Assembly: GCA_964640385.1 (NCBI GenBank)
Contig: CAZXFL010000002.1
Location: 27,045-91,044, forward strand
Reading direction: 5' to 3'
Length of the DNA: 64,000 nucleotides
From: an uncultured Actinomycetes bacterium
GTDB taxonomy: Bacteria > Actinomycetota > UBA4738 > JBBDHU01
Shown: positions 1,996 through 26,897 of the stretch, piece by piece
Numbering within the stretch: the stretch's first letter is position 1
Layout: the number at the start of each line of letters is the position of its first letter
The notes under the pieces: model-generated
What the model saw: the letters and a program-made list of their open reading frames with translations, nothing else
What the model was told of the DNA's origin: nothing
The model's database searches: none
Made by a program: the position numbers and the translations under genes

Positions 1996-4073
1996 CGATC
2001 GGCCTCCTGCCCGATCGTCGGGATCCGGCCGGTGACGGTCGTCCCCTCGCCCGGGGTGCTGGAGATCGCGAACGAGCCCCCCAGCGCGTCGATGCGGTCA
2101 GCCATGTTGGTCGTCCCCGCGCCTCGGGCGGTCGTGGACGGATCGAATCCCCGGCCGTCATCCGACACCACGAACGTGAGCTCGCCGTCGCGAACGGCGA
2201 GCTCGATCACGGCGCGGTCAGCGTTCGCGTACTTCGCGATGTTCTGGAGGGCCTCCAGGCAGCAGAAGTACACGGCGGACTCCGCTTCTTGCGGATAGCG
2301 TCCGATGCCGTTGCCATCGACCGTCACGGCGACCGACGCCTTCCGCGCTTGGGACTCCAAGGCCGCCAGGAGCCCCTGGTCCGCAAGGACGGGCGGGTAG
2401 ATCCCACGGGCCAGGTCGCGCAGGGTCTCCAGCGCCTCACGGGTCTCTTCCTGCGCCTGCCCAAGCATCTCTCTCGCCGTACCGATGTCCTTGTCGATCA
2501 TGGTCTCGGTGATGCGCAGCTTCACCGAGAGGGCGACGAGCTGCTGCTGGGCCCCGTCGTGCAGGTCGCGCTCGATCTTGCGGCGCTCCCCGTCCTGCGC
2601 GGTGACGAGGCGCTGTCGCGAGGCCCGGAGGTCGTCGAGCCGGGCCAGGAGCTGCTCGGTGAGTGCCACGTTCCGCAGCACGAGCCCGGCCTGCGACGCC
2701 AGATCCTCGATCAGCGTCGCCTCGGTCGATGTGAGCCCCTCGGTCGCCGGCTTCTCGACCGAGAGCGCACCGAGGAGTTCCCCCTGGTGTCGGACGGGGA
2801 TCATGGCCGGCAGCATGGGGTCAACCGGCACCGGTTCGAGGGCCGGCGCATCCGCGGGCCAGGTGGACCCGGCCGACAGGGAACTGCCCGAGACCAGCCA
2901 TACGTCTGCCCGGACCGCGCCCGTGCCCTCCGCGAGGATCCGGGCCATCCGCGGCAAGATGTCCTCGCTCGCGTAGGTTCCGCCGATCTGTTCGGAGAAT
3001 TCCGAGAGCACCTCGTAGGGCGTTGCGCGCTTCCCGTAGACGAACCGGTTCGCGATGTGCTGAGCCCTTCGACGGACCGGCTGGAAGGCGAGCGCGACCA
3101 CAGCGGCGGCGATCGCCGACAGGAACGTGTTGCTCGCGGATCCGGCCACCGCGCCCACGCCGGCGACGATCAGGACGTAGATGAGCGTGATGAACCCCGC
3201 CATCATCCCGTAGACGACCGTCTTGCTGATGACGACGTCGATGTCGTACAGGCGATATTTCAAGAGCGCGATCGTCACGGAGGCTGGGATGCCGATCGCG
3301 ATCAGCAGCACGAAGGCCATCCAGAGGACGTCGCCTACGCTGCCCATCCATCCTGGCAGGTCTTCTCCGAAGACCCGGCTGAGGACGAACAGCAGGAAGA
3401 ATGCGGTCCCGGCGAGGAAGACCACATACACGAACCACCGGAGTTGCTGGCGCTCCTCTCCTCGCGCCTTCCGGTAGCGAACAATGACCGAGGCGATCGA
3501 CGCGAAGCCGACGAAGAAAGCGGCGGCGGCGCCCGCCTTCACCAGGAAGGAAAGTATCCCTTCGAGCGCGGGGATACCCAGAGGATTCTGAACGGTGACG
3601 CGTTCGCTCACGTTCAGCTCGCCGGGGCGAAACATCAGGCCGATCAGCATTGCCACCGTGGCGATGGCGAGCGCCCACAGGAGCGGCCGCCACCGGCGGG
3701 AGAGGGGTCGGCCGGTCGGGAACAGCAGGAGGATCAGCGGGAGCGCGACGCCCGTCATGACGAGTGACCAGCTGGAAACCCAGGCTGCCCACACGAGCAC
3801 GAGCGATCCGAGCTCCGCGCTCTGCACGTACTCATCGGCGATGGAGCTGAGGACGAACGCTGCGGCTAGCGAGATGAAGATCCACCCGATGACGTTCCCG
3901 GCGCGCAGAGCGATGACGAGGCCGATGGTCGCGAACGTCAGCGTCGTGCCCGCGAAGATGAGCAGGTCGGGGCTGGGATCGTGGGTTGCCCCGACGACGA
4001 GTCCGGCGACGGTGCCGAGCGCGACGAGTGTCCAGAGAGACCACGCGACCCGTGCAACGGTCTTCCGCCTCAT
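1992..4073 (-). CDS. Sensor histidine kinase paralogue B (about 10 TM + GAF-like + HisKA_3 + HATPase_c)
   Basis: 693-aa ORF with multiple hydrophobic segments. H-box ERDLHDGAQQQLVAL, N-box YFCCLEALQNIAKYA, G-boxes SDDGRGFD and GGSFAISSTPGEGTTV. Confidence 0.9.
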   Translation of the reverse strand: MRRKTVARVAWSLWTLVALGTVAGLVVGATHDPSPDLLIFAGTTLTFATIGLVIALRAGNVIGWIFISLAAAFVLSSIADEYVQSAELGSLVLVWAAWVSSWSLVMTGVALPLILLLFPTGRPLSRRWRPLLWALAIATVAMLIGLMFRPGELNVSERVTVQNPLGIPALEGILSFLVKAGAAAAFFVGFASIASVIVRYRKARGEERQQLRWFVYVVFLAGTAFFLLFVLSRVFGEDLPGWMGSVGDVLWMAFVLLIAIGIPASVTIALLKYRLYDIDVVISKTVVYGMMAGFITLIYVLIVAGVGAVAGSASNTFLSAIAAAVVALAFQPVRRRAQHIANRFVYGKRATPYEVLSEFSEQIGGTYASEDILPRMARILAEGTGAVRADVWLVSGSSLSAGSTWPADAPALEPVPVDPMLPAMIPVRHQGELLGALSVEKPATEGLTSTEATLIEDLASQAGLVLRNVALTEQLLARLDDLRASRQRLVTAQDGERRKIERDLHDGAQQQLVALSVKLRITETMIDKDIGTAREMLGQAQEETREALETLRDLARGIYPPVLADQGLLAALESQARKASVAVTVDGNGIGRYPQEAESAVYFCCLEALQNIAKYANADRAVIELAVRDGELTFVVSDDGRGFDPSTTARGAGTTNMADRIDALGGSFAISSTPGEGTTVTGRIPTIGQEADR

Positions 4074-4255
4074 CGCGGATCCTCAACGGGTCCCACGGGG
4101 ACCCTCCCCGAGACGGTCGTGCCCCGCCCCGGTTCCGAGGTCACTTCGACACCTCCACCGAGCACCTCCAGGCGGTCCGACATGTTCTGCAGGCCGGCAC
4201 CCCGGGGCTGGGTGGAGTCGGACCACGCGAGGATCCGGCCGGTGCGTGGCTTCAT
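4070..4255 (-). pseudogene. Relic of a fourth histidine kinase: N-terminal about 12 aa fused in frame to the C-terminal about 48 aa of the HATPase_c domain
   Basis: 61-aa ORF MKPRTGRILAWS|DSTQPRGAGLQNMSDRLEVLGGGVEVTSEPGRGTTVSGRVPV. The head resembles MRRKTVARVAWS (kinase B). The tail aligns to GAGTTNMADRIDALGGSFAISSTPGEGTTVTGRIP. ATGA overlaps at both ends. Confidence 0.6.
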
Positions 4256-6453
4256 CCGACGGTCTCCATCGCGTGCGACGGGATGCTCCCGCGGATGGTC
4301 GTCCCTCGGCCGGGCGCCGATACGATCTCGACGGATCCGCCGAGTGCCTCTGCCCGGTCGCGCATGTTGATCAACCCGGATCCGGCCGGGGTTGCGTCGG
4401 TATCGAATCCGACTCCTTCATCGGTGACCTCGAAGGAGAGTTGACCGGCGTCGCCTGAGAGAGCGATCTTCACCCCATGGGTCTCGGCGTACTTGGTGGC
4501 GTTCTGCACGGCCTCGAGGCAGCAGAAGTAGGTGGCCGCCTCGACGTCGATCGGGAACCGCGCGAGTCCGGGGGCGTGGATGCGGATGTCGAGTGCGCTG
4601 CGGCGGGTCTGGGTCTCGAGCGCCTCGACGAGCCCGCGTTGCTCCAGGAGAGGTGGGTAGACGCCGCGGGCCAGGTCGCGAAGCGTTTCGAGCGCCTCGG
4701 CGGCTTCGCCCTGGAGTTCTTCCAGTACCGAGCGGGCCTTCGCCGGATCGGCGGCCGCGATCGTCTTCGCGAGACGCAGCTTCACCGCCAGGGCCACCAG
4801 ATGCTGTTGCGCTCCGTCGTGGATGTTGCGCTCCAGACGACGCCGCTCGGAGTCCTGTGCGGCGATGATCCGCTGGCGGGACGAGCGCAGCTCCTCGGAC
4901 TGGCGCGAGATCTCGTCCAGGCGTGTCTCCAGTTCGGCGGTCAAACCGAAGTTCCGGAGGACGAGGCCTGCTTGCGAGGAGAGGTCCTCCACGAGCTTGC
5001 GTTCCGCTGGGGTGACCGGCTCGCTCGAGGACTTCGTGAGCGTGAGGGCACCGAGAAGCTCGTCGTGCAGGGTGACGGGCACGGCGAGCGTGACCGCACC
5101 GAGTGGAGGCAGCCCTTCGTCGGATAGCTCGACGCTGTCTGGCCCGCTCACGGCCGCGTCGCGCGGCCAGCTCGCGACACGCGAGAGCCGCGATCCACTC
5201 CGCAGCCATACCTCTGTCCGATCCGCTCCCGTGCCTGCGGCCAAAACCTGCGCGGTGAGCGGTAGGGCCTCCTCGGTGGCAACGGTGCCTGCGATGTGGT
5301 CGGCGATCCCCGCGAGCACTTCGTAGGGAGTTGCCCGCTTCCCGTAGACCAGGCGGTTCGCGAACCGTCGCGCGCGGTCCCGGACCGGTTGGAACGCCGC
5401 CGCAACCACCGCGGTTGCCGCCACCGACAGGAGCAGGCTGGGTTCGTCGCCGCGACCGACCAGCGTCCCGACCCCGACGACGATTCCGACGTACACGATC
5501 GTGATGAAGGCGGCGAGTGCCCCGAAGACCACGGCGCGGCGGATCACGAGGTCGACGCCGTAGAGTCGATATTTCATGATCGCGGCCCCGCACGCCAAGG
5601 GGATCCCGAAACCGATCGTGAGCGCGAATCCGATGAAGCCGAGGAAGGAGAGGCCGACGAGCAACGTGGCCTCCTCGGAGGTAAAAGACACCAGTTGGGT
5701 GCCTACGGTGAGTGCGAAGAAGAAGAGCGCGAGGACCGCGACCATGACGAGCCACCGGAGCTGCTGGCGTTCCTCGCCGCGTGCGCGCCGGAAGCGGCCG
5801 ATCAAGGCGAACGCGGTGGAAAGAGAGGCCACGATGAAGATGAGGTTCCCGATCAGGATGATGGTGCCCGCGCGCGCACCGAAGGCTTCGATCCCCAGGG
5901 GGTTCTGTAGTTGGAGTCCGAACTCCCGGAAATTGTTGAGCGTTTCGGGCTTCAGGCCGAGGCCGATCCCGGCGATGAGCAGTCCGGCCGCGATCGCCCA
6001 CCCCGCCATGCGCCAACGGGGCGAGGGCGCGTGGCCATCGGGGAAGATCAGGAACAGGAGGGCAAGCGGACCGACCGTCGGGATCAGCCCCAGCTCGCCG
6101 ACGATCGCCGTCGCCCCGGTTGCCGGCATGCTCGGCTGCACGATGATCCCGAAGATCGTGTACGCCTGGGCGAACGACGTGACGATGAGACCGAGCCCGA
6201 CCGCGGTGAACAGCCAGCCCACGTTGTTCCCGCGTTGGGCGGCGATGATCATGGTCCCTACCCAGAGCCACAGCAAGGCGATCGTGGCCACGATGAACGC
6301 TGCGGCGCTGAGGCCCGCCCTGGGAGCGTCGGTTGCCGACGCGGCGGCGAGCGCGAGGGTGACCGCGGTCAGTCCGACCCCGAGGACGCGCATGGCGCGC
6401 GCCGTCCGTCGATACCGACGGGCGTCGCCGACCGGACCTGCTCGCTCGTCCAT
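4252..6453 (-). CDS. Sensor histidine kinase paralogue A (multi-pass membrane + GAF-like + HisKA_3 + HATPase_c)
   Basis: 733-aa ORF. H-box ERNIHDGAQQHLVAL, N-box YFCCLEAVQNATKYA, TDEGVGFD and GGSVEIVSAPGRGTTI. Start could alternatively be the internal Met at 6393. Confidence 0.9.
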   Translation of the reverse strand: MDERAGPVGDARRYRRTARAMRVLGVGLTAVTLALAAASATDAPRAGLSAAAFIVATIALLWLWVGTMIIAAQRGNNVGWLFTAVGLGLIVTSFAQAYTIFGIIVQPSMPATGATAIVGELGLIPTVGPLALLFLIFPDGHAPSPRWRMAGWAIAAGLLIAGIGLGLKPETLNNFREFGLQLQNPLGIEAFGARAGTIILIGNLIFIVASLSTAFALIGRFRRARGEERQQLRWLVMVAVLALFFFALTVGTQLVSFTSEEATLLVGLSFLGFIGFALTIGFGIPLACGAAIMKYRLYGVDLVIRRAVVFGALAAFITIVYVGIVVGVGTLVGRGDEPSLLLSVAATAVVAAAFQPVRDRARRFANRLVYGKRATPYEVLAGIADHIAGTVATEEALPLTAQVLAAGTGADRTEVWLRSGSRLSRVASWPRDAAVSGPDSVELSDEGLPPLGAVTLAVPVTLHDELLGALTLTKSSSEPVTPAERKLVEDLSSQAGLVLRNFGLTAELETRLDEISRQSEELRSSRQRIIAAQDSERRRLERNIHDGAQQHLVALAVKLRLAKTIAAADPAKARSVLEELQGEAAEALETLRDLARGVYPPLLEQRGLVEALETQTRRSALDIRIHAPGLARFPIDVEAATYFCCLEAVQNATKYAETHGVKIALSGDAGQLSFEVTDEGVGFDTDATPAGSGLINMRDRAEALGGSVEIVSAPGRGTTIRGSIPSHAMETVG

Positions 6454-6630: not shown

Positions 6631-7635
6631 ATGACTGCCGATCGCATCGAAGCTGCGACCACGTCGATGTCGTGGATCCCGATGGGGGCACCGACCGGGG
6701 CACTGAAGGTGCCGTTCGAGGTGGGGATCGCGCACTACGATGAGCCGCCGCCGGATCCGCTGGCCGACGAGGAGATGATCGTGGGCCTGCGGAACGCCGA
6801 CCGGTTCCGGTTCTGCAACCGGCTGCGCGCCTTCATCGAGGTCCAGGACGGACGGATCACGGGGTACGGGTCGACGGGCGAAGGCATGATCGGTTCGACC
6901 ACCCTGCGGTTTGCCGGCAGGGGTGTGACCTTCCAAGCCGTCGCGTACCCGGATCTGCAACCCGAGCCCGAGGTCGGGGAGAACTTCGTCCGCTTCGTGC
7001 AAACGGCCGGCGGCCGGACCGGCGTTCCGGCACCTCGGACGGTGAAGCACCCCCCGTTCGTGCAGATCGCCGCGCCGACCGCCTGGACGACTCTGGCGCT
7101 CACGATCTTCACGGATGGGACCTCCCAGCACGAACTCGTCGGTGCCAGCCCATTCCCGCGCCACTGGGTCTACGACCGCGACGGCAAGCTCGCGGAGAAG
7201 ACGGCGACGATCGACTTCAAGAAGTGGACGGGCACGATGTTCGGCAAGCACTCCCCTTGGGGCGACGAGGACTCGCCGGCGATCACCACTGCGGTGGAGA
7301 CGGCCGCCGAACACGAGTTGTCGAAGGTCATCATCGACGCGAAGCCGGAGTTCAGGAAGGTCAAGGAGGGTGCCGCGCTCGTCGAGCAGGGCGACGCGGG
7401 CGACGAAGTGTTCCTGCTTTTCGACGGGGTGCTCTCGGTCGAGATCGACGGGGAGCCGGTCACCGAGTTCGGACCCGGCGCGATCCTCGGTGAGATGGCG
7501 ATCGTCGGCGAGGGCACTCGGGTCGCCACGCTGCGCGCGCGGACCGACTGCCGGGTAGCGGCGGTTCCCGGCCACAGCATCGATCGCGCGGAGCTGGAGG
7601 AGATCGCCAAGCGCCGTCAGGACGGCGAGGGGTAG
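6631..7635 (+). CDS. Cyclic-nucleotide-binding protein with an unassigned about 210-aa N-terminal domain
   Basis: ATG 6631 is preceded by AGGAAGGAG (6615-6623). The C-terminal about 110 aa has CNB features: FRKVKEGAALVEQGDAGDEVFLLFDGVLSV...FGPGAILGEMAIVGEGTRVATLRA. The upstream part of track ORF 5911..7635 is antisense to kinase A and was discarded. Confidence 0.8.
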   Translation: MTADRIEAATTSMSWIPMGAPTGALKVPFEVGIAHYDEPPPDPLADEEMIVGLRNADRFRFCNRLRAFIEVQDGRITGYGSTGEGMIGSTTLRFAGRGVTFQAVAYPDLQPEPEVGENFVRFVQTAGGRTGVPAPRTVKHPPFVQIAAPTAWTTLALTIFTDGTSQHELVGASPFPRHWVYDRDGKLAEKTATIDFKKWTGTMFGKHSPWGDEDSPAITTAVETAAEHELSKVIIDAKPEFRKVKEGAALVEQGDAGDEVFLLFDGVLSVEIDGEPVTEFGPGAILGEMAIVGEGTRVATLRARTDCRVAAVPGHSIDRAELEEIAKRRQDGEG

Positions 7636-7643
7636 CGGGTAGG

Positions 7644-9224
7644 GTGCCGGGTGTGGAGACCTTCGACGCCGTCGTCATCGGCAGCGGACCGAACGGGCTG
7701 ACCGCCGCCGCATACCTCGCGCGCGAAGGCTGGAGCGTCGCGGTCCTGGAGCAGGCCGGCGTCGCGGGTGGTGCGATCCGCAGCGAGGAGCTCACCGAAC
7801 CCGGCTTCGTCCACGACACTTTCTCGGCGTTCAACGGCCTGCTGCATGCGTCGCCGGTCTTCACCGAACTCGAGCTGGATCGCCGGGTGACGTGGGCGCA
7901 CTTCGAGACCCCGGTCTCGGTCCTCGTCGGTCCTCACGACGGGGCCTTCATCTCGCGCGACGCCGACGTTACCGCCCGAGGGCTGGAGAAGATCCACCCT
8001 GCAGATGGACGGGCCTGGCTCGAGCTATGGGGATGGTGGAAGCGGAGCGGCCGCCGGCTCTTCGACGTGCTGCTCTCGCCGATCCCGTCGCCGCGTCCCG
8101 CCTGGCGGTTGTTGCGCGCAGCGGGGATGAGCGGGCTGTTCGAGACGGCGAAGATGCAGGCCGAACCGGGGGAGCAGATCGCCTTGCAGCGCTTCGGGTC
8201 CTCGGAGGCGCGCGCGTTGCTTGCCTGCGGCGTGTCTCATGGGGACCTGGCGGTCGATGAGATGGGGAGCGCGCCCGGGATGCTCGTCTTGGCCATGCTG
8301 GCACAGGACACGGGCATGCCGGTGCCGGTCGGAGGCGCCGGTCGGCTCGCCGAGGGGTTCGCCGGAGCCGTTACCGAGGCGGGCGGGTCCGTGTTCACCG
8401 GCGAGCAGGTTCGCCGCATCCGCATGGAACGTGGGCGCGCGGTCGGGGTCGAGACCGTCGGAGGCGCGCGCTTCCGCGCGCGCCGCGCGCTGCTCGCGGA
8501 CACGGGTCCAGGCGCGATGGTGAGACTGGCCGGCGAGGAGGCGTTCCCCAAGTCCTATCTCGACGGGGTACGCCGCTTCCGGTACGGCAGCGGGGTCTTC
8601 AAGATCGACTTGGCGCTTTCGGGTGTGGCGCCGTGGGCGGCCGAAGAGATGCGGGAGGTCGGCGTCGTGCATGTGACCGGGGACCTGGACGCGATGGCGC
8701 GATCGGCGTTCGAGATCCGTCGCAGCCTGCTCCCGCGGGAACCGTTGCTGGTCGTCGGACAGCAGAGCCTCGCGGACCCGACGCGCGCGCCCGACGGCGG
8801 CCAGACCCTGTGGATCGAATGCCACGTCCCGTCCGTCCCGCTTGGGGACGCGGCCTCACAGATCGACGCTGGCGACTGGAACGCCGCGCGCGAGCCATTC
8901 CTCGAGCGATGCCTTGCCCGGCTGGAGGCGCATGCGCCGGGCCTGCGAGGGATGATCATCGGCGTGTCTACCCATACACCGGACGATCTGGAGCACGAGG
9001 ATCCCAACCTCGTTGGCGGGGACATCGGCGGCGGGTCGAGTGCGATCGACCAGCAGCTCATCTTCCGGCCCGTCACCGGGTGGTTCCGCTACCGGACACC
9101 GGTGAAGGGTCTGTACCTATGTTCGGCGTCCGCGCACCCGGGCGGTGGGGTCCACGGCATGGTCGGACGGAACGCCGCCCGGCGCGTCTTGCGTGACGCG
9201 AAGTTCATCGGGAAGGGTGGCTGA
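7644..9224 (+). CDS. NAD(P)/FAD-dependent oxidoreductase, phytoene-desaturase (CrtI-like) family
   Basis: N-terminal dinucleotide fold DAVVIGSGPNGLTAAAYLAREGWSVAVLEQ. 526 aa. Starts 8 nt after the preceding gene. Confidence 0.85.
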   Translation: MPGVETFDAVVIGSGPNGLTAAAYLAREGWSVAVLEQAGVAGGAIRSEELTEPGFVHDTFSAFNGLLHASPVFTELELDRRVTWAHFETPVSVLVGPHDGAFISRDADVTARGLEKIHPADGRAWLELWGWWKRSGRRLFDVLLSPIPSPRPAWRLLRAAGMSGLFETAKMQAEPGEQIALQRFGSSEARALLACGVSHGDLAVDEMGSAPGMLVLAMLAQDTGMPVPVGGAGRLAEGFAGAVTEAGGSVFTGEQVRRIRMERGRAVGVETVGGARFRARRALLADTGPGAMVRLAGEEAFPKSYLDGVRRFRYGSGVFKIDLALSGVAPWAAEEMREVGVVHVTGDLDAMARSAFEIRRSLLPREPLLVVGQQSLADPTRAPDGGQTLWIECHVPSVPLGDAASQIDAGDWNAAREPFLERCLARLEAHAPGLRGMIIGVSTHTPDDLEHEDPNLVGGDIGGGSSAIDQQLIFRPVTGWFRYRTPVKGLYLCSASAHPGGGVHGMVGRNAARRVLRDAKFIGKGG

Positions 9225-9226
9225 TG

Positions 9227-9898
9227 CTAGCCGTTGCCGCTCTCGCGCAGGAACGCCAGGACCGCCATGACCCTCCGGTGCACCTGGGGCTCTTCGGACA
9301 GCGCAAGCTTGTGGAACAAGGAGTTGATGTGCTTCTCGACGGCGCGGTCGGTCAGGAACAGCGCCGCCGCGATCGCGGCGTTGTTCTTGCCCTGCGCCAT
9401 CTGTTCCAGAACCTCGCGTTCCCGTTCCGTCAGTTGCGCCAGCGGCGAGTTCGCCTCGCGGTCCTTGCGCGCGACCAGCGCCTCAACGACCGCTGGATCG
9501 AGCACGGAGCCTCCCTTGGCGACCTCGCGGATCGCTCGGACCAGTTCATCCACGTCCGCAACGCGCTCCTTCAGCAGATACGCGAGTCCGGAGGCGCCGT
9601 TCTTCAGCAACTCGTAGGCGTAGTCGTCCTCGACGTATTGGGAGAGCACGACGACACCTGTTTCCGGATGCTTGGCCCGGATCGTCTTCGCCGCGTCGAT
9701 GCCCTCGGTGGTGTTGGTGGGGGGCATCCGGATGTCGGTCAGGACCACATCGGGCGCTTCGCGCTCGACCGCAGCCATGAGACCGTCGAAGTCCTCGACC
9801 GTCGTGACCAGTTCCAGGTCGTCGACCGTCGCGAGCAGCGACGCCGTGCCTTCCCTGACCAGGTAGTTGTCTTCCGCGAAGACGAGGCGGAGCGCCAT
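9227..9898 (-). CDS. NarL/FixJ-family response regulator (REC + LuxR-type HTH)
   Basis: MALRLVFAEDNYLVREG...DVVLTDIRMPP...VVVLSQY...LLK, then REREVLEQMAQGKNNAAIAAALFLTDRAVEKHINSLFHKL. The track ORF is over-extended. The ATG at 9898 fits the family N-terminus. Confidence 0.9.
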   Translation of the reverse strand: MALRLVFAEDNYLVREGTASLLATVDDLELVTTVEDFDGLMAAVEREAPDVVLTDIRMPPTNTTEGIDAAKTIRAKHPETGVVVLSQYVEDDYAYELLKNGASGLAYLLKERVADVDELVRAIREVAKGGSVLDPAVVEALVARKDREANSPLAQLTEREREVLEQMAQGKNNAAIAAALFLTDRAVEKHINSLFHKLALSEEPQVHRRVMAVLAFLRESGNG

Positions 9899-9930
9899 CC
9901 GCGCATCGTACACGGGGGGAGGCGGGCGGC

Positions 9931-11220
9931 GTGAGCATCCGAGTCGTCCTTGCCGATGACAACGTGCTCGTGCGGGAGGGCGTGCGTGCGCTGCTTGATG
10001 CGACCGATGGGATCGAGGTCGTCGGGGTCGCCGACGACGCACCCTCACTGCTCGTTGCCGCGAAGGAACACGAGCCGGACGTGGTCGTGACCGACATCAA
10101 GATGCCGCCGCTCTTCCAGCTCGAGGGGATCGACTGCGCACACGAGATCCGCCGTACCCAGCCGGGGACCGGCGTCGTCGTGCTGTCCGCCCACGACGAC
10201 GAGGCCTACGCGATCGCACTGCTCGGCGGCGGCCACAGCGGCCTGGCGTACCTGCTGAAGGATCGCATCGCGCAGGGGGATGAGCTCGCGCGCGCCATCA
10301 GCGAGGTCGCCGTCGGGGGCTCGACCGTCGACCCGGTCATCGCCGAGCGCCTGGCCGGACGGCGCGAGGCAAAGGAAGAGGATCGCGAGATCCTCGATCT
10401 GATGGCGCAGGGCCTCGGCTACGCGGAGATGGCGGCGAGGCTCGAGACGACCCAGGAGGCGATCGATCACCGCGTCACGTCCCTGTTCGTCCAACTCGCG
10501 GGTGAGGCGGGCCACGGCGAGGCGCACGCCGTTGACGAACTGAAACGTCTACACGCCGCGGTGGTCGATCGGGAGTCGTCGGCGCGTACCCTGCGGTCGT
10601 TCGTTCCGCAGGGCGTGGCCGCCAAGCTCGAGTCGAGCGATGTCGATGCCGCCTCGGTCCAGGAGGAGGTCGAGGCGACGATCCTGTTCTCGGACATCCG
10701 AGGCTTCTCGACCCTGGCTGAGCAGATGTCGGCCCGCGAGATCGCCGACCTTGTCGGCCGGCACCTCACCGCGATGGCCGAGGTGGTTCAGGAGCACGGC
10801 GGTATGGTTGACAAGTTCGCCGGGGACGCGGTCATGGCGGTGTTCGGCGCGCCGGACCCGATGCCGGATCACGCCGCGCGAGCGCTTCGGTGCGCCCTCG
10901 CGATGCAGGCGCGGCAGGCAGAACTGAACGGGGACGCCGAGGCGAATGGGGTGCCTCCCCTCCACATGGGGGTCGGCGTGAACACCGGCGTCGTGATCGC
11001 CGGAACGATCGGCGGCGGGGGAAGGCTGGAGTACACGGTCGTGGGGGACGCCGTGAACGTCGCGCAGCGGCTGCAAGGCGAAGCCAAGGGTGGTGAGGTC
11101 CTGGCGACCGCCGCCTCCATCGCTGCAGCCCCGGACGTGCGCGCAAAGCCGGCGGGAAGCAAGCAGGTCAAAGGGCGGAAGGAAGCGGTCGAGGCGTTCC
11201 GCGTCCTCAGCGAACGGTGA
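9931..11220 (+). CDS. Response regulator receiver + LuxR-type HTH + class III adenylate/guanylate cyclase fusion
   Basis: REC: IRVVLADDNVLVREG...DVVVTDIKMPP...VVVLSAH...LLK. HTH: EDREILDLMAQGLGYAEMAARLETTQEAIDHRVTSLFVQL. Cyclase: EATILFSDIRGFSTL, VDKFAGDAVMAVFG, VGVNTGVVIAGTIGG..RLEYTVVGDAVNVAQRLQ. GTG start with GGGGGAGG upstream. Confidence 0.9.
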   Translation: MSIRVVLADDNVLVREGVRALLDATDGIEVVGVADDAPSLLVAAKEHEPDVVVTDIKMPPLFQLEGIDCAHEIRRTQPGTGVVVLSAHDDEAYAIALLGGGHSGLAYLLKDRIAQGDELARAISEVAVGGSTVDPVIAERLAGRREAKEEDREILDLMAQGLGYAEMAARLETTQEAIDHRVTSLFVQLAGEAGHGEAHAVDELKRLHAAVVDRESSARTLRSFVPQGVAAKLESSDVDAASVQEEVEATILFSDIRGFSTLAEQMSAREIADLVGRHLTAMAEVVQEHGGMVDKFAGDAVMAVFGAPDPMPDHAARALRCALAMQARQAELNGDAEANGVPPLHMGVGVNTGVVIAGTIGGGGRLEYTVVGDAVNVAQRLQGEAKGGEVLATAASIAAAPDVRAKPAGSKQVKGRKEAVEAFRVLSER

Positions 11221-12796
11221 CTTCGACCTCGTCGTAGCCCGTCGCTCCCGACGGGTACGGTTCGGCGAACGCTGCTTCCTGCACCGTGCCGGTGCCATCG
11301 GTCGCGCGAACGGCCAGCGTGTAGTCGCCGGCCCCCGGCGGTTGCCAATCGAAGCGCCACAATCGCCACGTCAACGGTGAGAGCGCCGTCTTGAGCTGCG
11401 CCTGGTCCCACGTGGCGCCGCCGTCGCTGGAGACCTCGACCGTGGAGATCTCACGGCCGGCGAACGCGACGCCGGCGACCGTGACCCGGCCGGCGACCTC
11501 GGCCCCATCGTGCGGGGTATCGATCCGAGACATCGTCTTGATGATCGCTTCCTTCGTCCAGCCGCGCCGTTCCCAGTAGCCGTCGTACGGCTGGCCGACC
11601 ACCTCGATCTCGCCGAGCCACTTGGGGTTCTTCATCCCGAACGTGCCGACACCCAGGAGCCGCGCCGGGAACCCGTGCGCGCGCGGGAGGAGGTTTCCGC
11701 CCATGCCGATCGCGATGAGGGTCTGCTCGTCCAGCGCCTGCTCGACCGGCATGCTGTCGGAGTAGCCGCTGACGGCGCGGAACACGACCTCGACCGCTCC
11801 GTCGCCCATGCCGCCCGCCCGTTCGAGCAGGCGCGCGAGCGGCACCCCGGTCCACCGCTGCGTGGACATGATGTCCCCGCCGACCGGGTTCGAGATGCAC
11901 TCGAGGGTCTGGTAGCGCTCGAGTGCCGGGAGCGAGAGCAGGTCCTGGTGGGTGAGGGTCACCGGGCGAGCGACCAGGCCGACGATCGACAACCGCCACG
12001 TTGCGGGATCGATGTCGGGGCGGATGATCTCCTCGTTGACGACGTAGAAGTCGGCGAGCGAGGTGATCTCCTGGGTGAGACCGGGGATCGCGGCGAAGGC
12101 GCCGTCCTCCGCCGAGGGGGTCGGCACGGCCGCCGGGGTCACGTTCGCGAGGGTGAGGGACCGCGTGCCGGGGTCGGGCCGGCGATACAGGAACCGCGAT
12201 GGATCGAGGAGCCCGACCGCGATCCCGGCACTACCCACCGCGGCCGCGCGCACGAAGGTCCTGCGCGACCGATCTCTCGTGACGTTCGGCATGTGCAGGG
12301 GCGGCTCGGCGAGGCGGCGGTAGGTCCGTCCCGCGAAGGCGCCCGCCGCCAGGAACAGCGGGAGCTGGACGGCGGCAAACACCGCCCGCGAGGCGTGATC
12401 GGCGAGTGTCGGATAGAGGGCGACGGTCGCAAGCCACGGCAGGACGAAGACACCGGCACCGATGAGCGCCGTGCTGCGTCCTCCGCCCGCGGCCAGACGC
12501 CAGATGAACAGACCCAGCAGCAGCCCCGACGCGACGAACGCGACCGCGGTCCCGATGACCGCGAGTCGCAGGGCCCAATGGCCGAGTAGGTCGATGAAGA
12601 TGGTGTCGAAGCTCGCGGGTGGGAGACGGATCAGCGTCTGCGCGATCGCGACCGGAGGGAACGCGATATGCGGGACGAGCATGTTGAGTAGGGCGCTAGC
12701 AGCGGTCAGCGCCGACATCCCTGCGAGCCCGGCGATCGCGGCGGACCGCCGGTCGGTCCGCGCCGGGCGAGGGTCCGTGTCCAGGCTTCGCTCCAT
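11207..12796 (-). CDS. Molybdopterin-dependent oxidoreductase (sulfite-oxidase/YedY-like Mo domain) with an N-terminal multi-TM domain and a C-terminal Ig-like domain
   Basis: 529 aa. About 5 hydrophobic helices, then ...YQTLECISNPVGG...WTGVPL...LLPRAHGFPARLLGVGTFGMKNPKWL..., typical of the oxidoreductase molybdopterin-binding fold. GGAGGG RBS. The 3' end overlaps the convergent cyclase gene by 14 nt. Confidence 0.85.
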   Translation of the reverse strand: MERSLDTDPRPARTDRRSAAIAGLAGMSALTAASALLNMLVPHIAFPPVAIAQTLIRLPPASFDTIFIDLLGHWALRLAVIGTAVAFVASGLLLGLFIWRLAAGGGRSTALIGAGVFVLPWLATVALYPTLADHASRAVFAAVQLPLFLAAGAFAGRTYRRLAEPPLHMPNVTRDRSRRTFVRAAAVGSAGIAVGLLDPSRFLYRRPDPGTRSLTLANVTPAAVPTPSAEDGAFAAIPGLTQEITSLADFYVVNEEIIRPDIDPATWRLSIVGLVARPVTLTHQDLLSLPALERYQTLECISNPVGGDIMSTQRWTGVPLARLLERAGGMGDGAVEVVFRAVSGYSDSMPVEQALDEQTLIAIGMGGNLLPRAHGFPARLLGVGTFGMKNPKWLGEIEVVGQPYDGYWERRGWTKEAIIKTMSRIDTPHDGAEVAGRVTVAGVAFAGREISTVEVSSDGGATWDQAQLKTALSPLTWRLWRFDWQPPGAGDYTLAVRATDGTGTVQEAAFAEPYPSGATGYDEVEVTVR

Positions 12797-12871: not shown

Positions 12872-14815
12872 TCAGGCCTGCGCCGCCTCTGCCGAGTGCC
12901 GCCGAAGTGCGACGATCGCCAGGGGCGCCCAGCCGAGGAGCGCCGCGCCCACGGTCACGACCTTGATCGGCGTGCCGGAGAACGGGGCCCCGAACCGGCT
13001 CCCGACGACCCCGCCGAGCGCCAGTGTCACGATCCCGAACGCTGGTGCGAGGGCGATCCGGTAGACCCATGGCGCCTCGATCAGACTGACTGCCCAGCCG
13101 AGCCCGGCGAGGGCCAGCAGCATGAGCAGTGCAGTGGTTCGCCAGGTGAGCGACCAAGGGGAGGACGGGGCAAGGTGCGGTCTCGCCTGCGCGATGCGTT
13201 CTGTCGGGACCGGTCCGCGCACGATGGTGATGCCATCGGTGAGCGCGAACCCCACCGTGATGATCTCCTCGGTTCCGGGTTCCGGGGACAGGTCCACCAC
13301 GACCGCATCCTGCGCGAGCGCTTCCTGCACCGACGGCCAGGTCTTGAGTGACTTGCGGTTGAACTCGTCCTGGCCCTCGACGATGGTCGGCTGTCCGGCG
13401 AGCAGCGTCTCCGTATCACCCAGGTATGCGTACGTCCGTGGGATGAGGTCGGCGGGCAGGACCGCCCGGATCAGATGTAGTGCCGTGGCGGTGCGCTGCT
13501 GGTCGACGAACACGACGGGGCCGTCCCATCCGACCGACATCAGGTAGCGCTCGACCGTCTCGACCTCCGCGATCTTCGCAGCGACGGGCTCGTTCTCGTC
13601 CCACATCGGGTCATCGCCGTTCCAGCCGGCTTGCGCTGCACCGACCGAGGCGGCGATCCCGAGGACCATCAGGGTTGCGCCGAGCACGCGCCCGATCGGG
13701 CCGAAGCGGCGTCCTAGGCGTCCGGGCCAGACGACCGCGACCGCACCGAGGAGGGGGATCCCGAGGGCGAACCCAAGGAATCGATACGCCGCGAACTGGA
13801 TGCCCGAGTCGAACGCCCAGACGGCCGCGACGCCGATCGCGGCCCACGCGAGTGCCAGGAGCACCGCCCGCCACCGTGGTCGGGTGGCGGCCAGCAGGAC
13901 CAGGAATGCTCCGGTCGTCGCCAGGGCAACCGTGATGGACAGGGAGAACAGCGGCACGAACGCGTGGAACTTCTCGACCAGCCGGGAAGGGTCGTTCGAG
14001 GGAAGCACGGACGGGAGCGCCGGGCCGATCAACAGCGCTGTGAACCCGCCTCCCAGGGCGAGAGCGACCGTGGCGATCATGCGTCCGGACTCGGTGTTGG
14101 GGAGCGGGACCCGCGAGGAGCGATGGACCCGGACTGACGAGGGGGTCCGCAGGACCGCAACCACACCCACGAGCGCGAGGAAGACGAGCGTGAAGATCCA
14201 GTGGATGACCGCCGCGCCCGTGAGCAGGAACGCCGCCGCGGCCATCGAGCGGCGCGTGAGGGGTTTGGGCGAGGTTCGACGCGCAACCGGCGTCAGCGTG
14301 ACGGCGACGGCAGCGGCCATGAGGACGCCGTCCACGATCAGGTTGTCCGCGTACCCGACCGCGGTCCGAGCGACCTGGATCGACGCGCCAACTACTAACA
14401 GGAAGATCGCGAACACCCACCGGGGATGCCCCAGACATCTGACCGCGAACACGCCTGCGCCCAGACCGATGATGATCGCCATCACCGCGGGCAGGATCTC
14501 CGCCAACCGGATGGGGTCGATGCCCAGCGTTCCCCAGACGGTCGCCGCGATGGCCGGGTAGCCGGGGCGGTCGGGATTGTCCTCGAACTCGGGGGGTGCG
14601 GATCCGGGGATCGCGCCCAGTCCCTGATCGGCGGCGAGCGTCGCCCGCCAGATGTACTTCTTCGTGTCGATCCCGACCGGGAATGAGACCCGGCCGCTGA
14701 GGTACGGCGCCAGGAACAGCGCCGCGACCCCTGCCATCGCCAGGACGACGGAGAGGACGACGAAGGCGCTACTCGACGGGGGGCGCTGGTCGTCCCTCCG
14801 TTTGGTTCCCGTCAT
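12872..14815 (-). CDS. Large polytopic membrane protein (possibly GT-C-like) with an internal soluble domain
   Basis: I trimmed the 971-aa track ORF to the Met at 14815 (MTGTKRRDDQRPPSSSAFVVLSVVLAMAG...), because the upstream 324 codons are antisense to etfB. At least 12 hydrophobic segments. No catalytic motif recognised. Confidence 0.7.
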   Translation of the reverse strand: MTGTKRRDDQRPPSSSAFVVLSVVLAMAGVAALFLAPYLSGRVSFPVGIDTKKYIWRATLAADQGLGAIPGSAPPEFEDNPDRPGYPAIAATVWGTLGIDPIRLAEILPAVMAIIIGLGAGVFAVRCLGHPRWVFAIFLLVVGASIQVARTAVGYADNLIVDGVLMAAAVAVTLTPVARRTSPKPLTRRSMAAAAFLLTGAAVIHWIFTLVFLALVGVVAVLRTPSSVRVHRSSRVPLPNTESGRMIATVALALGGGFTALLIGPALPSVLPSNDPSRLVEKFHAFVPLFSLSITVALATTGAFLVLLAATRPRWRAVLLALAWAAIGVAAVWAFDSGIQFAAYRFLGFALGIPLLGAVAVVWPGRLGRRFGPIGRVLGATLMVLGIAASVGAAQAGWNGDDPMWDENEPVAAKIAEVETVERYLMSVGWDGPVVFVDQQRTATALHLIRAVLPADLIPRTYAYLGDTETLLAGQPTIVEGQDEFNRKSLKTWPSVQEALAQDAVVVDLSPEPGTEEIITVGFALTDGITIVRGPVPTERIAQARPHLAPSSPWSLTWRTTALLMLLALAGLGWAVSLIEAPWVYRIALAPAFGIVTLALGGVVGSRFGAPFSGTPIKVVTVGAALLGWAPLAIVALRRHSAEAAQA

Positions 14816-15010
14816 GCGCTCCCTCGACGCCGGCTGAGCGGATAGTACCCGGCAACGCTGGCGAGCCCCGGCGGTGGCGGCGCCCCTCGATCGCCGGCCG
14901 TGGCATCGGACCGCATCTCCTCTATCCTCTCCTGGTCGCGCCCACGGGCGAGGCAGGCGGGGACCTCCGGCGAGGGCTTCCGCCGTGACCGCCAGCGGAG
15001 GGAACGCCAG

Positions 15011-15778
15011 ATGCAGATCGCGGTTCTGTGCAAGTGGGTCCCGAACCCTCAGGGGGTTCAGGAGATCGGTGCGGACAACCTGATCGTGCGGTCCGGCGTC
15101 GAGGGGGCGCTCGACCCCGGCGACGAGTTCGGCCTGGAGGCCGCCCTGCAGATCGCCGAGGCGAACGGGGGAGAGGTCACCGTCGTCTCGATGGGACCGG
15201 AAGAGGCCGTCGCTGCGGTTCAGCGCGGACTGGCGATGGGCGCCGCGAAGGGGGTCTTGGTCACCGACGATGCGTTGCGCGGCGCCGACGTTCTGGTCAC
15301 CGCCCAGGTCCTGGCCGCGGCGCTCAAGCGTGGGTCCTACGATGTCGTGATCGGTGGTGTCGAGTCCACCGACGGGTACACGGGTACGCTGCCGGTCACC
15401 GTCGCCGAGCTGCTCGGCTTGCCCAGTCTCACGTTCGCCAAGAAGGTGGAGGTTTCCGGGGGGACGGCGCGTATCGAGCGGCAGACCGAGTCGGGCTACG
15501 ACGTGGTCGAGTGCCCGTTGCCGGCCGTCATCACCGTGACCGCGGGCGCGAACGAGCCCCGGTACCCGAACCTCAAGGGCATCATGCAGGCCAAGCAGAA
15601 GCCGTTGGAGCGTCTGAGCGTCGGCGATCTCGGGCTCGGGACGGACGATATCGAGTCGACGCAGACCGTGACGAGTATCACGGACGCGCCGGCGAAGGCG
15701 GGCGGCGAGGTCATCGAAGCGGGGGACGACACCGCAGCTCGTATCGCGGATCTGCTGGCGGAAGCGAAGGTGATCTGA
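15011..15778 (+). CDS. etfB: Electron transfer flavoprotein subunit beta
   Basis: [13 protein letters not shown]...[11 protein letters not shown]...VTVVSMGP...GADLVL-like motifs, with a GGAGGGA RBS. Track ORF trimmed to the ATG at 15011. Confidence 0.9.
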
Positions 15779-15779
15779 C

Positions 15780-16739
15780 GTGACCAAGGTATGGGTCTAC
15801 GCGGACATCTCGTCGGCCGGCCCCAGTCCGGCGGCGCTGGAACTGCTCACCAAGGCGCGCGCGATCGGCGACGAGGTCGAGGCTGTTGCGCTCGGGCCGG
15901 GCTCAGCGGCGGCAGCCGCGAGCCTCGGTGAGTACGGCGCGCAGACGGTCTACGCGAGTGACGAGGCCGTCTTCGACGAGCACCCGGGGCAGCCGGCCGC
16001 TCACGTCCTAGCGGGCCTGGTCGCCGATCACCTCCCGGACCTCATCCTGTTCGCGACCTCCTACGACTCGCGCGATGTCGCCGGCCGCCTGCAGGCCAAG
16101 CTGCGCTCCACGCTGATGAGCAACGCGACGGACATCGCGGGATCCGATGAGGCATCGACCGAGATCCAGGGCGGGACCAAAGCCGTTGCGGTCGGCCTCG
16201 GCGGGTTCGAGCCGAAGTTGGTCCTCATGCGGCCGAAGTCCGTGCAGGCGGAGTCGTCGGGAGGAACCGCCGAGGTGGTCACGGTCGCGGCCGACGTTCC
16301 GGACGATCAGAAGACGGTCACGCGCATCGAGCGCCACGAGGAGGGATCCACCGGGCCGAAGCTCGAGGACGCCAAGGTCGTGCTCGCCGGCGGTCGCGGG
16401 CTGAAGGAGCCCAGCAACTTCAAGCTCCTCGACGAGCTGGCGGGCGCCATCGGGGACGCAGCGGTCGGGGCCAGCCGGGCCGCCGTCGACGCGGGCTGGG
16501 TTCCCTACAGCTACCAGATCGGTCAAACGGGTAAGACCGTCAAGCCGGAGGTCTACATCGCGGTCGGCATCAGCGGCGCCATCCAGCATGCGGTCGGCAT
16601 GAAGGGTTCGAAGCGCATCATCGCGATCAACAAAGATGCCGACGCGCCGATCTTCCAGCTCGCCGACCTCGGGGTCGTCGGCGACCTGTTCACCATCGTC
16701 CCTCAGCTCATCGAGGAGATCGCGAAGCGGCGGGCGTAA
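15780..16739 (+). CDS. etfA: Electron transfer flavoprotein subunit alpha
   Basis: C-terminal FAD-binding signature VVLAGGRGL...[46 protein letters not shown]. Starts 2 nt after etfB. Confidence 0.92.
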
Positions 16740-18244: not shown

Positions 18245-18952
18245 ATGGAAGAGTTGGTTCGCGGGTACGTCGAGGGGCAGGTCTCCCGCCGCACCTTCAT
18301 CCGCCGGGCGGTCGCCGCTGGCCTGACCGTGAGTGGGGCCATCGTGTACGCCGACCTGCTGGCAGCCACGCCTGCCTACGCGGCCACCCGCCACGTCGAT
18401 GTGGACGACTACCTGTTCTACACACCGACGACGGCCGCGAAGCTGGGCGAATACGTCGAATGGGACTGGTCCCCCTCGTCCTCAGCGCATCGCGTGATGT
18501 ATACCGTCGAGGGGATCGACCTGGGGACCCTGCAACCGTTCAACGCCGGGCCTTTCCCGGCCGGCTATTTCGATACGTTCGACCACCGTGGCCTGTTCTC
18601 GGTCGCCGGGACGTGGAACTACACCTGTCCCGATCCCTTGCACGGATCGGGGCTCCCGATGAACGGGTCGATCGAGATCCCGCCTCGCGTGGGCCCTCGT
18701 CGGGGCAGCGTTGGCGATCGCTTCCTGATCGAGTGGGCGATCAGCCCGCCCACCTTCGGGGTGTTCGATGTGGACGTGAAGGAGCCGGGCGGAAACTGGA
18801 AGCGCTGGCGTAACGCCGTGGATCGAACGGTCACCGAGGGGCGGTACAAGGCGACAGAGAAGGGGCGGCATCGCGTCCGTGCCCGGTTCCGCAATCCGGC
18901 CCAGCCCGCCTCCGCCGGGTGGTCGCCGGATGCCATCTTCACCGCTCGGTGA
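18245..18952 (+). CDS. Tat-exported cupredoxin-like protein with a C-terminal Fn3-like module
   Basis: SRRTFIRRAVAAGL...AYA twin-arginine signal. Candidate type-1 Cu ligands are SSAHRV ... YTCPDPLHGSGLPM (C-x4-H-x5-M). Track ORF trimmed to the ATG at 18245. Confidence 0.6.
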   Translation: MEELVRGYVEGQVSRRTFIRRAVAAGLTVSGAIVYADLLAATPAYAATRHVDVDDYLFYTPTTAAKLGEYVEWDWSPSSSAHRVMYTVEGIDLGTLQPFNAGPFPAGYFDTFDHRGLFSVAGTWNYTCPDPLHGSGLPMNGSIEIPPRVGPRRGSVGDRFLIEWAISPPTFGVFDVDVKEPGGNWKRWRNAVDRTVTEGRYKATEKGRHRVRARFRNPAQPASAGWSPDAIFTAR

Positions 18953-26326: not shown

Positions 26327-26402
26327 GGAAACCCGATGTTACCCCAAGCGGGATCGCTAGCTGGGCGCCGGAACGCCGGGGGATGTGCGAGCGCCCGCCC
26401 GG

Positions 26403-26897
26403 CTATTCGCAGCTCTTGATCGTGTTATTTCCGGGACCGCCCTTGCACGTGTCGTTGCCCTTCCCGCCGACGAGCGTGTCGTTCCCGTCCTTGCCGAGCA
26501 GCTTGTCGTTCGCGTTGCCACCCTTGATGGTGTCGTTGCCATCCTGGCCGATGACCTGGTCTCGCCCACGTCCGGCGATGAGCGTCTCATCGCCGGAGTC
26601 GCCGGTGATCGTCGTCGTTCCCGTGAACGCGGACGCGTTCACCATTCCATCCGAAACCGCAGCCAGCGATCCCTTCTCGATGCCGGAAAGCGCGTCGATC
26701 TCGGTTGCTCCTTCGATGGACGTGTCGGTGAGGATGATCGGGTTGTCCTTCGCGACGACGGTGTCAGTGCCGCCGCCGCCGGCAACCGCGTCGTTGGTGG
26801 AGTCCGGCACCAGTGTGATCTCGTCGTTGCCGACGCCGGCAGAACTCACGGCGTTCAGCTCCCTCGCCGGTCGGACGATCAACGCGACGACGTTCAC
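26403..26897 (-). CDS. Calcium-binding (RTX-like GGxGxD) repeat protein fragment. Lacks a signal peptide and is probably 5'-truncated.
   Basis: GQDGNDTIKGGNANDKLLGKDGNDTLVGGKGNDTCKGGPGNNTIKSCE. Aligns to the C-terminal half of the full-length paralogue 38208..39515. Confidence 0.6.
   Translation of the reverse strand: MNVVALIVRPARELNAVSSAGVGNDEITLVPDSTNDAVAGGGGTDTVVAKDNPIILTDTSIEGATEIDALSGIEKGSLAAVSDGMVNASAFTGTTTITGDSGDETLIAGRGRDQVIGQDGNDTIKGGNANDKLLGKDGNDTLVGGKGNDTCKGGPGNNTIKSCE

Follow-up and report, generated by a model that had tools for sequence, protein, structure and literature searches.

A NarL-related response regulator with a vestigial helix-turn-helix and a predicted class IIIb adenylyl cyclase domain in an uncultured Actinomycetes bacterium

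The gene of interest lies at positions 9931–11220 (+ strand) of a 64,000-nucleotide stretch of contig CAZXFL010000002.1 (assembly GCA_964640385.1), from an uncultured Actinomycetes bacterium; this whole stretch is referred to as the window. Its 429-amino acid product, hereafter the REC-cyclase, joins a receiver (REC) domain, three helices derived from a LuxR/GerE-type helix-turn-helix (HTH), and a class III nucleotide cyclase. We favour the reading—at a probability of roughly 60%—that the protein is a response regulator whose output is the synthesis of cyclic AMP (cAMP) and not transcription, and whose HTH remnant does not bind DNA. A preliminary description, made from the sequence alone, had seen in this gene a complete NarL-type regulator with an intact-looking HTH, in an unusual architecture that would couple phosphorylation to both transcription and cyclic nucleotide synthesis. 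Its account of the receiver and the cyclase holds, and all of the motifs that it quoted are found in the translation (LADDN, DVVVTDIKMPP, YLLK, FSDIRGF, DKFAGDAVMAVFG and GDAVNVAQRL), while its account of the HTH is substantially revised below.

The open reading frame (ORF) is confirmed as a real, conserved gene. It opens with a GTG codon, 8 nt upstream of which lies a Shine-Dalgarno sequence (GGAGG, 9918–9922), and the G+C content of its third codon positions (0.86) is that of the other genuine genes in the ~68% G+C window. Pfam recognizes Response_reg at residues 5–104 (E 2.6e-18; 66.6 bits against a curated cut-off of 30.2) and Guanylate_cyc (PF00211) at residues 244–419 (E 1.8e-25; 90 bits against a cut-off of 21.9). 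An AlphaFold2 (AF2) monomer model has a mean predicted local distance difference test (pLDDT) score of 77, with a confident cyclase domain. The gene and its parts are as follows (residue numbers are those of the REC-cyclase).

9931–11220 (+): the whole gene, REC / vestigial LuxR-type HTH / cyclase transducer element (CTE) / predicted class IIIb adenylyl cyclase, 429 aa (ORF, Pfam, large homologous family).
9937–10305 (+): REC domain, residues ~3–125 (Pfam, E 2.6e-18; PDB sequence matches NarL, DevR, VraR, DesR and RcsB).
10357–10503 (+): vestigial LuxR/GerE-type HTH, residues 143–191, helices α7–α9 only (hhalign, BLASTP, column statistics, AF2).
10504–10542 (+): variable Gly/Ala-rich tether, residues ~192–204, at the place of LuxR helix α10 (entropy, spacing, AF2).
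10543–10650 (+): putative signalling helix and CTE, residues ~205–240, 'LKRLHAAVVDRESSARTLRSFVPQGVAAKL' (alignments to proteins of known structure, fixed spacing).
10660–11205 (+): class III cyclase catalytic domain, residues 244–425 (Pfam, PDB sequence matches, Foldseek).

Descent of the protein from a NarL-type regulator of the actinobacterial 'DI(K/R)MPP' subfamily is supported by comparison with the adjoining REC+GerE regulator, since residues 1–190 are 49% identical to it (E 9e-56). The alignment of the two paralogues runs ungapped through the HTH region, and its last matched stretch is 'SLFVQLA'. Full-length NarL-type models of NCBIfam (MctR, MadR and NarL) likewise align from residue 3 to about residues 179–190, stopping short of their own C-termini.

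The architecture occurs in at least 80 species-level genomes, belonging to uncultured Actinomycetota, Acidimicrobiia, Dormiibacterota and one isolate. A survey of GTDB species representatives supplied the 80 best loci; almost all span the whole protein, three being truncated at the end of a contig. These loci fall into two clades. Clade 1 (56 loci, 65–74% identity to the REC-cyclase) consists nearly entirely of metagenome-assembled genomes of uncultured Actinomycetota. Clade 2 (24 loci, 45–48% identity) comes mainly from Acidimicrobiia/Microthrixaceae and from a separate phylum, Candidatus Dormiibacterota, with single loci labelled Nocardioidaceae, Solirubrobacteraceae and Acidobacteriota; one belongs to the cultured Phytoactinopolyspora endophytica EGI 60009 (L071, 6001–7287). 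For the HTH, a profile of 78 family members was compared with one of 60 canonical (REC+GerE) paralogues, and the family was set column by column against the canonical paralogue from the same genomes.

These comparisons show that helices α7–α9 are homologous to those of a GerE domain, but that the HTH is not intact. By hhalign (97.1%, E 5.8e-11), residues 143–191 correspond to columns 13–61 of the 84-column canonical C-terminal domain (49 columns); the final 23 residues of that domain, which make up helix α10, have no counterpart. The HTH part alone is 45% identical to the canonical paralogue over 42 aa by BLASTP (E 2e-9), and AF2 places helices at residues 149–159, 164–170 and 175–194. The 50 Foldseek matches listed for the full-length model were all to cyclase domains and so did not bear on the HTH fold. 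The linker between REC and HTH is shorter than that of the canonical paralogue, by nine residues in clade 1 and by five in clade 2.

Failure of a profile search to detect the HTH had been named beforehand as a result that would count against an intact domain. The Pfam GerE profile gives no match at E ≤ 1 in the REC-cyclase, and scores above threshold in none of 30 family members scanned (below threshold in nine, best E 0.016). The homologue from P. endophytica reaches 16 bits against a gathering threshold of 23.5, while the neighbouring canonical regulator scores 52 bits (E 5.5e-14). In the middle of the REC-cyclase the sole Pfam signal is a sub-threshold match to Sigma70_r4_2 at residues 149–182; generic HTH profiles are weak across the family too, with weak Sigma70_r4_2 matches in 24 of the 30 members.

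Column by column, the family and the canonical paralogue differ as follows.

Recognition helix, canonical paralogue: R176-A-V-E-K-H-I-N183-S-L-F-H-K, invariant.
Recognition helix, clade 1: E176-A-V-D179-R-R/Q-V-T183-E/D-L-F-R-R, with E176, D179 and T183 invariant.
Recognition helix, clade 2: most commonly E-A-V-D-D-A-V-E-Q-L-F-L-K, with contact positions variable and largely acidic or small.
Positions 163–164: Asn-Asn in the paralogue, Gly-Tyr in clade 1 (invariant), Pro-Ile in clade 2.
Net charge of α7–α9: +0.27 in the paralogue, −3.5 in clade 1, −3.0 in clade 2.
Column entropy, HTH versus REC: 0.46 versus 0.83 bits in the paralogue, 0.95 versus 0.41 in clade 1, 1.33 versus 0.75 in clade 2.

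The HTH is thus the best-conserved part of the canonical paralogue, but is less conserved than REC in the REC-cyclase family. Four invariant residues of the paralogue (Arg176, Lys180, His181 and Asn183) are lost from the family, while the hydrophobic core is retained in both clades (L155, M/V158, A159, G161, I/M167, A168, V178, V/I182, L185, F186 and L/M189). Alignments to PDB sequences place Lys188 and Lys192 of NarL over Asp179 and Thr183 of the REC-cyclase, and Lys179, Lys182 and Asn183 of DosR over Glu176, Asp179 and His180. In NarL and DosR these are DNA-contact residues (PDB 1JE8 and 1ZLK).

Together, the retained core, the diverged and acidified surface, the loss of the dimerization helix and the relaxed constraint are consistent with a structural or protein-interaction role rather than with DNA recognition. 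The middle segment is probably a cut-down remnant of a GerE domain that has lost DNA binding. With its HTH truncated, its linker shortened, its DNA-contact positions replaced and its middle segment acidic, the protein does not fit the label of a complete NarL-type regulator. From the truncation and surface divergence of the HTH, it is also unlikely that this single polypeptide couples transcription to cyclase output.

The receiver looks functional, as the preliminary description had it, with all of the residues of the phosphorylation chemistry in place. These are (i) the phospho-acceptor Asp55, aligned with the acceptor Asp of NarL and DevR, (ii) the acidic pair Asp9/Asp10, and (iii) Ser86, Tyr107 and Lys110. 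All six are invariant in the 78 homologues and the 60 canonical paralogues.

The class III cyclase assignment also stands: none of the expected catalytic residues (two metal-binding Asp, the Lys, the Asn/Arg pair) is missing. The catalytic core shows no variation across the family at the metal-binding Asp255 and Asp299 or at Arg365, Asn376 and Arg380, and little at Lys295 and Thr369 (each at least 90% conserved). PDB sequence matches include Cya2 (2W01), CyaB (3R5G), bPAC and CyaC. Asp255, Asp299, Asn376 and Arg380 align with their equivalents in Cya2, CyaB and bPAC. Lys295 lies over the Lys of Pseudomonas aeruginosa CyaB and of bPAC, while Cya2 has Glu at this position; Thr369 lies over the Thr of CyaB and bPAC. 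The AF2 model of the domain matches CyaB, Cya2 and CyaC by Foldseek with target-normalised template modelling (TM) scores of 0.84–0.91 (for CyaB 3R5G, E 4e-20 and 0.90). In subclass IIIb, a Thr substitutes for the Asp of subclass IIIa. Because the adenine-specifying Lys295/Thr369 pair is present, the domain is most likely a subclass IIIb adenylyl cyclase, with cAMP as its predicted product. Guanylyl cyclase specificity was considered because Cya2 is the best PDB sequence match, and was rejected on the specificity residues, which are Lys/Thr and not Glu/Gly.

Between the HTH remnant and the catalytic core lie two stretches of contrasting behaviour. The tether is the most variable part of the protein (column entropy 1.67 bits), and the spacing from F186 to H208 falls into seven length classes of 15–21 residues in clade 1. 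All 78 sequences have the same spacing, 17 residues, from H208 to P226. Since tether length varies by non-heptad steps, rigid coupling of the HTH remnant to the cyclase through helical register is argued against. Downstream of the tether, alignments to the CTE-bearing structures bPAC, Rv1625c and Mycobacterium intracellulare Cya begin at residues 212–216, in a helix-Pro-helix region that we tentatively assign to a CTE (for the concept, see PMC5995499). A motif 'LRSFVPxxVAxKL' and its spacing are fixed in this region, where AF2 confidence is low (pLDDT below 50 at residues 211–228, as also at 196–198 in the tether).

From about residue 211 onwards, the REC-cyclase shares 59–65% identity with cyclases whose N-termini are different, GAF domains in some cases (P0130, P0131, P0135, P0137, P0141, P0142 and P0144, compared with window positions 10543–11220). 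Between clades 1 and 2, the cyclase modules are only 40–48% identical and the receiver domains 54–63%. Together these identities give a hint of module swapping or of fusion on more than one occasion. A cyclase gene downstream of one close homologue (L081, 10324–11664) was considered as the donor of the module, and was rejected at 27% identity (E 0.78).

The surroundings of the gene bear on its likely partners. In the window, two kinase genes (−) are followed by genes for a cyclic nucleotide monophosphate (cNMP)-binding protein (+), an amine-oxidase-like protein dependent on flavin adenine dinucleotide (FAD; +), the canonical NarL regulator (−) and the REC-cyclase (+), as listed here with the gene beyond it.

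1992–4073 (−): GAF-HisKA_3-HATPase_c sensor kinase 1, candidate phosphodonor (Pfam).
4252–6453 (−): GAF-HisKA_3-HATPase_c sensor kinase 2, candidate phosphodonor (Pfam, local phmmer; the true start may be later).
6631–7635 (+): 334-aa cNMP-binding protein, candidate cAMP receptor (Pfam cNMP_binding, E 4.5e-15, C-terminal).
7644–9224 (+): FAD-dependent amine-oxidase/phytoene-desaturase-like oxidoreductase (Pfam DAO, Amino_oxidase and NAD_binding_8).
9227–9898 (−): canonical NarL-type regulator (REC+GerE), paralogue of the REC-cyclase and divergent from it (Pfam REC, and GerE with E 5.5e-14).
9899–9930 (no strand): divergent intergenic region of 32 bp, with a −10-like TACGAT (minus strand, 9910–9905) 6 nt before the regulator ATG, and GGAGG at 9918–9922.
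11207–12796 (−): molybdopterin oxidoreductase (Oxidored_molyb and Mo-co_dimer), convergent, with a hydrophobic-rich N-terminal stretch.

Kinases homologous to the two in the window flank the gene in most loci of both clades. In 53 of the 56 clade-1 loci, a canonical regulator 71–79% identical to that of the window adjoins the REC-cyclase gene divergently, with GAF-HisKA_3 kinases flanking the pair. The closest relatives (L081, L082 and L083) share this regulator and, indeed, the same gene block as the window, including the cNMP-binding protein. Clade 2 shows a related arrangement: 17 of its 24 loci have a homologue of the cNMP-binding protein no more than 6 kb away—in 11 as the immediate, divergent upstream neighbour—and a kinase, often with a canonical regulator too, lies downstream. 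There is good evidence from this gene order that the kinase or kinases, the canonical regulator, the REC-cyclase and the cNMP-binding protein form one functional module, because the set recurs around proteins that are only 45% identical, and across phyla. The preliminary description had proposed a circuit from kinase to cyclase to cNMP-binding protein; the kinases and the cNMP-binding protein are present in the window as it stated, and the circuit gains support from the conserved synteny in two clades. The Crp/Fnr gene that it also placed there was not found by Pfam on ~40 ORFs, by phmmer with the cNMP domain of the window against all ORFs or by a motif regular expression, in a scan that was not exhaustive.

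The 334-aa protein is an exact match to a database entry (P0270) and has thousands of homologues in which PF00027 is the sole domain, all annotated solely as hypothetical or cNMP-binding. Its Foldseek matches are confined to the C-terminal cNMP-binding domain; for the β-rich N-terminal part (residues ~1–200) there is no Pfam match, and none among the PDB fold matches listed. The FAD oxidoreductase gene starts 9 bp past the stop codon of the cNMP-binding gene, and we take the two to be co-transcribed. It occupies the same position in L081, L082 and L083 and is present in several clade-2 loci; the oxidoreductase may be the enzyme on which the module acts, or else its partner.

In the intergenic region, a GGATGGTACAC-type motif is kept in about 55 loci (among L001–L056), over intergenic lengths of 23–77 bp. 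On the minus strand it reads TACGAT or TACCAT, 6–7 nt before the ATG of the canonical regulator. This position suggests that the regulator transcript is leaderless, which would place the promoter of the REC-cyclase gene inside the regulator coding sequence. At its other end, the REC-cyclase gene overlaps the 3' end of the molybdopterin oxidoreductase gene by 14 bp (11207–11220).

We propose the following course of events. A NarL-type regulator would have exchanged its last HTH helix for a fused class IIIb cyclase module that came with a signalling helix and CTE of its own. In the present-day protein, Asp55 would be phosphorylated by one of the neighbouring GAF-HisKA_3 kinases, whereupon the receivers would dimerize or re-pack, as in other NarL-family regulators. 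This change in the receivers would bring the tethered cyclase modules into a productive head-to-tail dimer, or free them to form one, and cAMP would be made. The three-helix HTH remnant, no longer binding DNA, would be kept as a folded adaptor or as an interaction surface against the receiver. Transcriptional output from the locus would come from the divergent canonical paralogue, and cAMP would be read by the co-conserved 334-aa cNMP-binding protein encoded beside the FAD oxidoreductase. The two outputs, transcription and cAMP, are more likely split over a conserved pair of paralogous regulators than united in one protein.

Several observations weigh against this reading or loosen parts of it. 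Clade 1 retains four arginines (180, 181, 187 and 188) in what was once the recognition helix, and has invariant surface residues of its own there; these may reflect binding of nucleic acid or of another ligand. The canonical paralogue itself has Glu179 at the position of NarL Lys188, so substitution of this lysine alone is no bar to DNA binding. In the AF2 model, the predicted TM-score is 0.49 and confidence is low over residues 196–228, such that the geometry between domains is unreliable. Helix α1 of the receiver, the kinase-docking helix, differs consistently between the REC-cyclase (Val12, Val18 and Arg19) and its paralogue (Tyr12, Thr18 and Ala19); with this difference, and with two or three kinases per locus, the two regulators may answer to separate kinases instead of a shared one. 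Finally, most of the GTDB clade-1 loci carry no cNMP-binding gene within 6 kb.

Some of these points feed a reading in which DNA binding persists in the three-helix HTH, the cyclase dimer supplying the dimerization otherwise due to α10, such that phosphorylation controls transcription and cAMP together. Such a protein would be a DNA-tethered, phosphorylation-gated adenylyl cyclase that makes cAMP at specific promoters beside a cAMP-binding effector, and, if real, would join two-component, transcriptional and second-messenger signalling in one polypeptide. The conserved HTH core, homologous to that of a working GerE domain, is what one would expect of it, as are the clade-1 arginines and the weak Sigma70_r4_2 matches, and the acidic residue of the paralogue at the NarL Lys188 position removes one objection. 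Against this stand the never-significant GerE scores, the absence of α10, and changes that are invariant in clade 1, namely the charge reversal from Arg176 to Glu and the replacement of Asn163/Asn164 by Gly/Tyr. Clade 2, moreover, keeps the architecture though nearly all of its basic and polar contact residues are gone; the segment is net negative and under looser constraint than REC; and a canonical DNA-binding paralogue stands alongside in nearly every clade-1 locus. We regard control of both outputs by this one protein as distinctly unlikely, and localized cAMP synthesis at promoters as improbable in like measure.

A further possibility, one that we also hold to be unlikely but would entertain tentatively, is that REC and the HTH remnant together act as a lid or docking surface released by phosphorylation, the former DNA-binding face having been exapted as a protein-protein interface. 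In its unphosphorylated state, this unit would either hold the cyclase in an unproductive arrangement or bind the paralogue or a kinase through the Glu176/Asp179/Thr183 face. The unphosphorylated receiver of NarL occludes the recognition helix (PDB 1RNL/1A04), which offers a precedent; the invariant surface residues of clade 1 fit an interface, and a tether of variable length speaks against rigid helical coupling. The same three positions are not conserved in clade 2, though, and the low inter-domain confidence of AF2 means that the interface is not modelled reliably. It is far less probable still that the protein is merely a phosphate sink, competing with the canonical regulator for phosphoryl groups while its cyclase is irrelevant. 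Two paralogous receivers in one locus with shared kinases nearby would suit such a role, but it sits badly with the invariance, or near-invariance, of the cyclase catalytic residues throughout the family, and with the co-conservation of a cNMP-binding protein. The reading that we prefer remains that of a response regulator with cAMP synthesis as its output and a non-DNA-binding HTH remnant.

Among the database matches listed, homologues of 420–450 aa share 70–79% identity with the REC-cyclase (E ≤ 1e-186) and carry only REC and cyclase domains in precomputed Pfam. At 50% clustering these homologues form one cluster, and there are a few other full-length clusters at 43–48% identity; one of the latter, P0124, has an additional C-terminal receiver domain. 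In three further proteins (P0129, P0150 and P0190), REC is joined straight to the CTE or cyclase without the HTH remnant. P0129 is seemingly complete at 359 aa, and P0150 and P0190 are perhaps chimeric or frameshifted assemblies. Far from being unusual, the architecture is common in metagenomes, while the family is apparently uncharacterized: in the searchable literature, coverage of which was incomplete, there is no characterized member and no description of a REC-HTH-cyclase protein, only the Rv0386-type class discussed below and general reviews. Many members bear the JGI label 'class 3 adenylate cyclase/DNA-binding NarL/FixJ family response regulator', the 'DNA-binding NarL/FixJ response regulator' part of which probably overstates their function.

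Elsewhere in the window, four features were recorded in passing. The ORF at 24849–25853 (+) matches universal stress protein (Usp) profiles and, towards its C-terminus, has a Rieske [2Fe-2S] domain; such a fusion looks uncommon. Two proteins, encoded at 26383–27369 (+) and 38208–39515 (−), carry RTX calcium-binding nonapeptide repeats (HemolysinCabind); they lie within and beside a stretch of lower G+C content (0.62–0.67). A 980-aa protein encoded at 18939–21884 (−) carries an N-acetylmuramoyl-L-alanine amidase domain and two family-2 glycosyltransferase domains. The 971-aa ORF at 12872–15787 (−) has no Pfam match and overlaps, on the opposite strand, the well-supported genes for ETF β (14900–15778) and α (15780–16739); it is probably, at least in part, a spurious ORF of high-G+C DNA.

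Set against known systems, the REC-cyclase shares its receiver and the first three HTH helices with the NarL/FixJ regulators (NarL, DevR/DosR, VraR, DesR and the neighbour at 9227–9898 (−)). Like them it is found near HisKA_3 kinases, and its receiver belongs to the same 'DI(K/R)MPP' subfamily as that of the neighbour. It departs from them in lacking a GerE match above threshold, in its missing α10, shorter linker, changed contact residues and acidic middle segment, and in the 225-residue cyclase module attached to it.

Receiver control of cyclases has precedents. Cyanobacterial CyaC (Spirulina/Anabaena; catalytic domain PDB 1WC0) is a receiver-regulated class III adenylyl cyclase, and its catalytic domain matches that of the REC-cyclase with a target-normalised TM-score of 0.83–0.88. 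Dictyostelium ACR is another such enzyme (PMC3009899). In both, as in the REC-cyclase, a receiver precedes a class III cyclase, an arrangement that links a phosphorelay to cAMP synthesis (for the REC-cyclase, by prediction). However, CyaC and ACR are multidomain hybrids of kinase, receiver and cyclase that lack an HTH-derived segment, whereas the REC-cyclase is a stand-alone, NarL-derived regulator with a three-helix HTH remnant between receiver and CTE.

CyaB (3R5G) and bPAC (5M2A/5MBH) have the same Lys/Thr pair, metal-binding Asp residues and Asn/Arg pair, and the CTE-like helix-Pro-helix before the core is probably common to the REC-cyclase and the class IIIb CTE cyclases, including a phytochrome-Cya2 fusion (6FHT). 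By analogy with these enzymes, the REC-cyclase is presumably an obligate homodimer. The sensor modules differ: MASE2, BLUF or phytochrome in those proteins, and a receiver with an HTH remnant here. So does the connection to the CTE, which in clade 1 is a variable Gly-rich tether, unlike a register-locked coiled coil.

Also known in Actinomycetota are the mycobacterial Rv0386/Rv1358/Rv2488c-type proteins, in which a cyclase homology domain (CHD) is joined to an ATPase, TPR repeats and a LuxR HTH (the CHD+LuxR class; PMC3466318). They, too, unite a class III cyclase and LuxR-type HTH sequence in one polypeptide. Their cyclase is N-terminal, followed by an NB-ARC/AAA ATPase and TPR, with a bona fide GerE domain at the C-terminus and no receiver. 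In the REC-cyclase the order is receiver, HTH remnant, cyclase; ATPase and TPR are absent, and the HTH is internal, truncated and degenerate.

While receiver-controlled cyclases are already known, this family would document a route from a NarL-type transcription factor to a second-messenger synthase, in the course of which a folded remnant of the DNA-binding domain was apparently kept. Paired with its canonical paralogue, the REC-cyclase would offer a natural example in which a phosphorelay divides, within a single locus, into an arm for transcription and an arm for cAMP. The family abounds in soil lineages that have been little studied (uncultured Actinomycetota, Acidimicrobiia and Dormiibacterota) and is tied genomically to a cNMP-binding protein and a FAD oxidoreductase, offering a testable candidate cAMP module.

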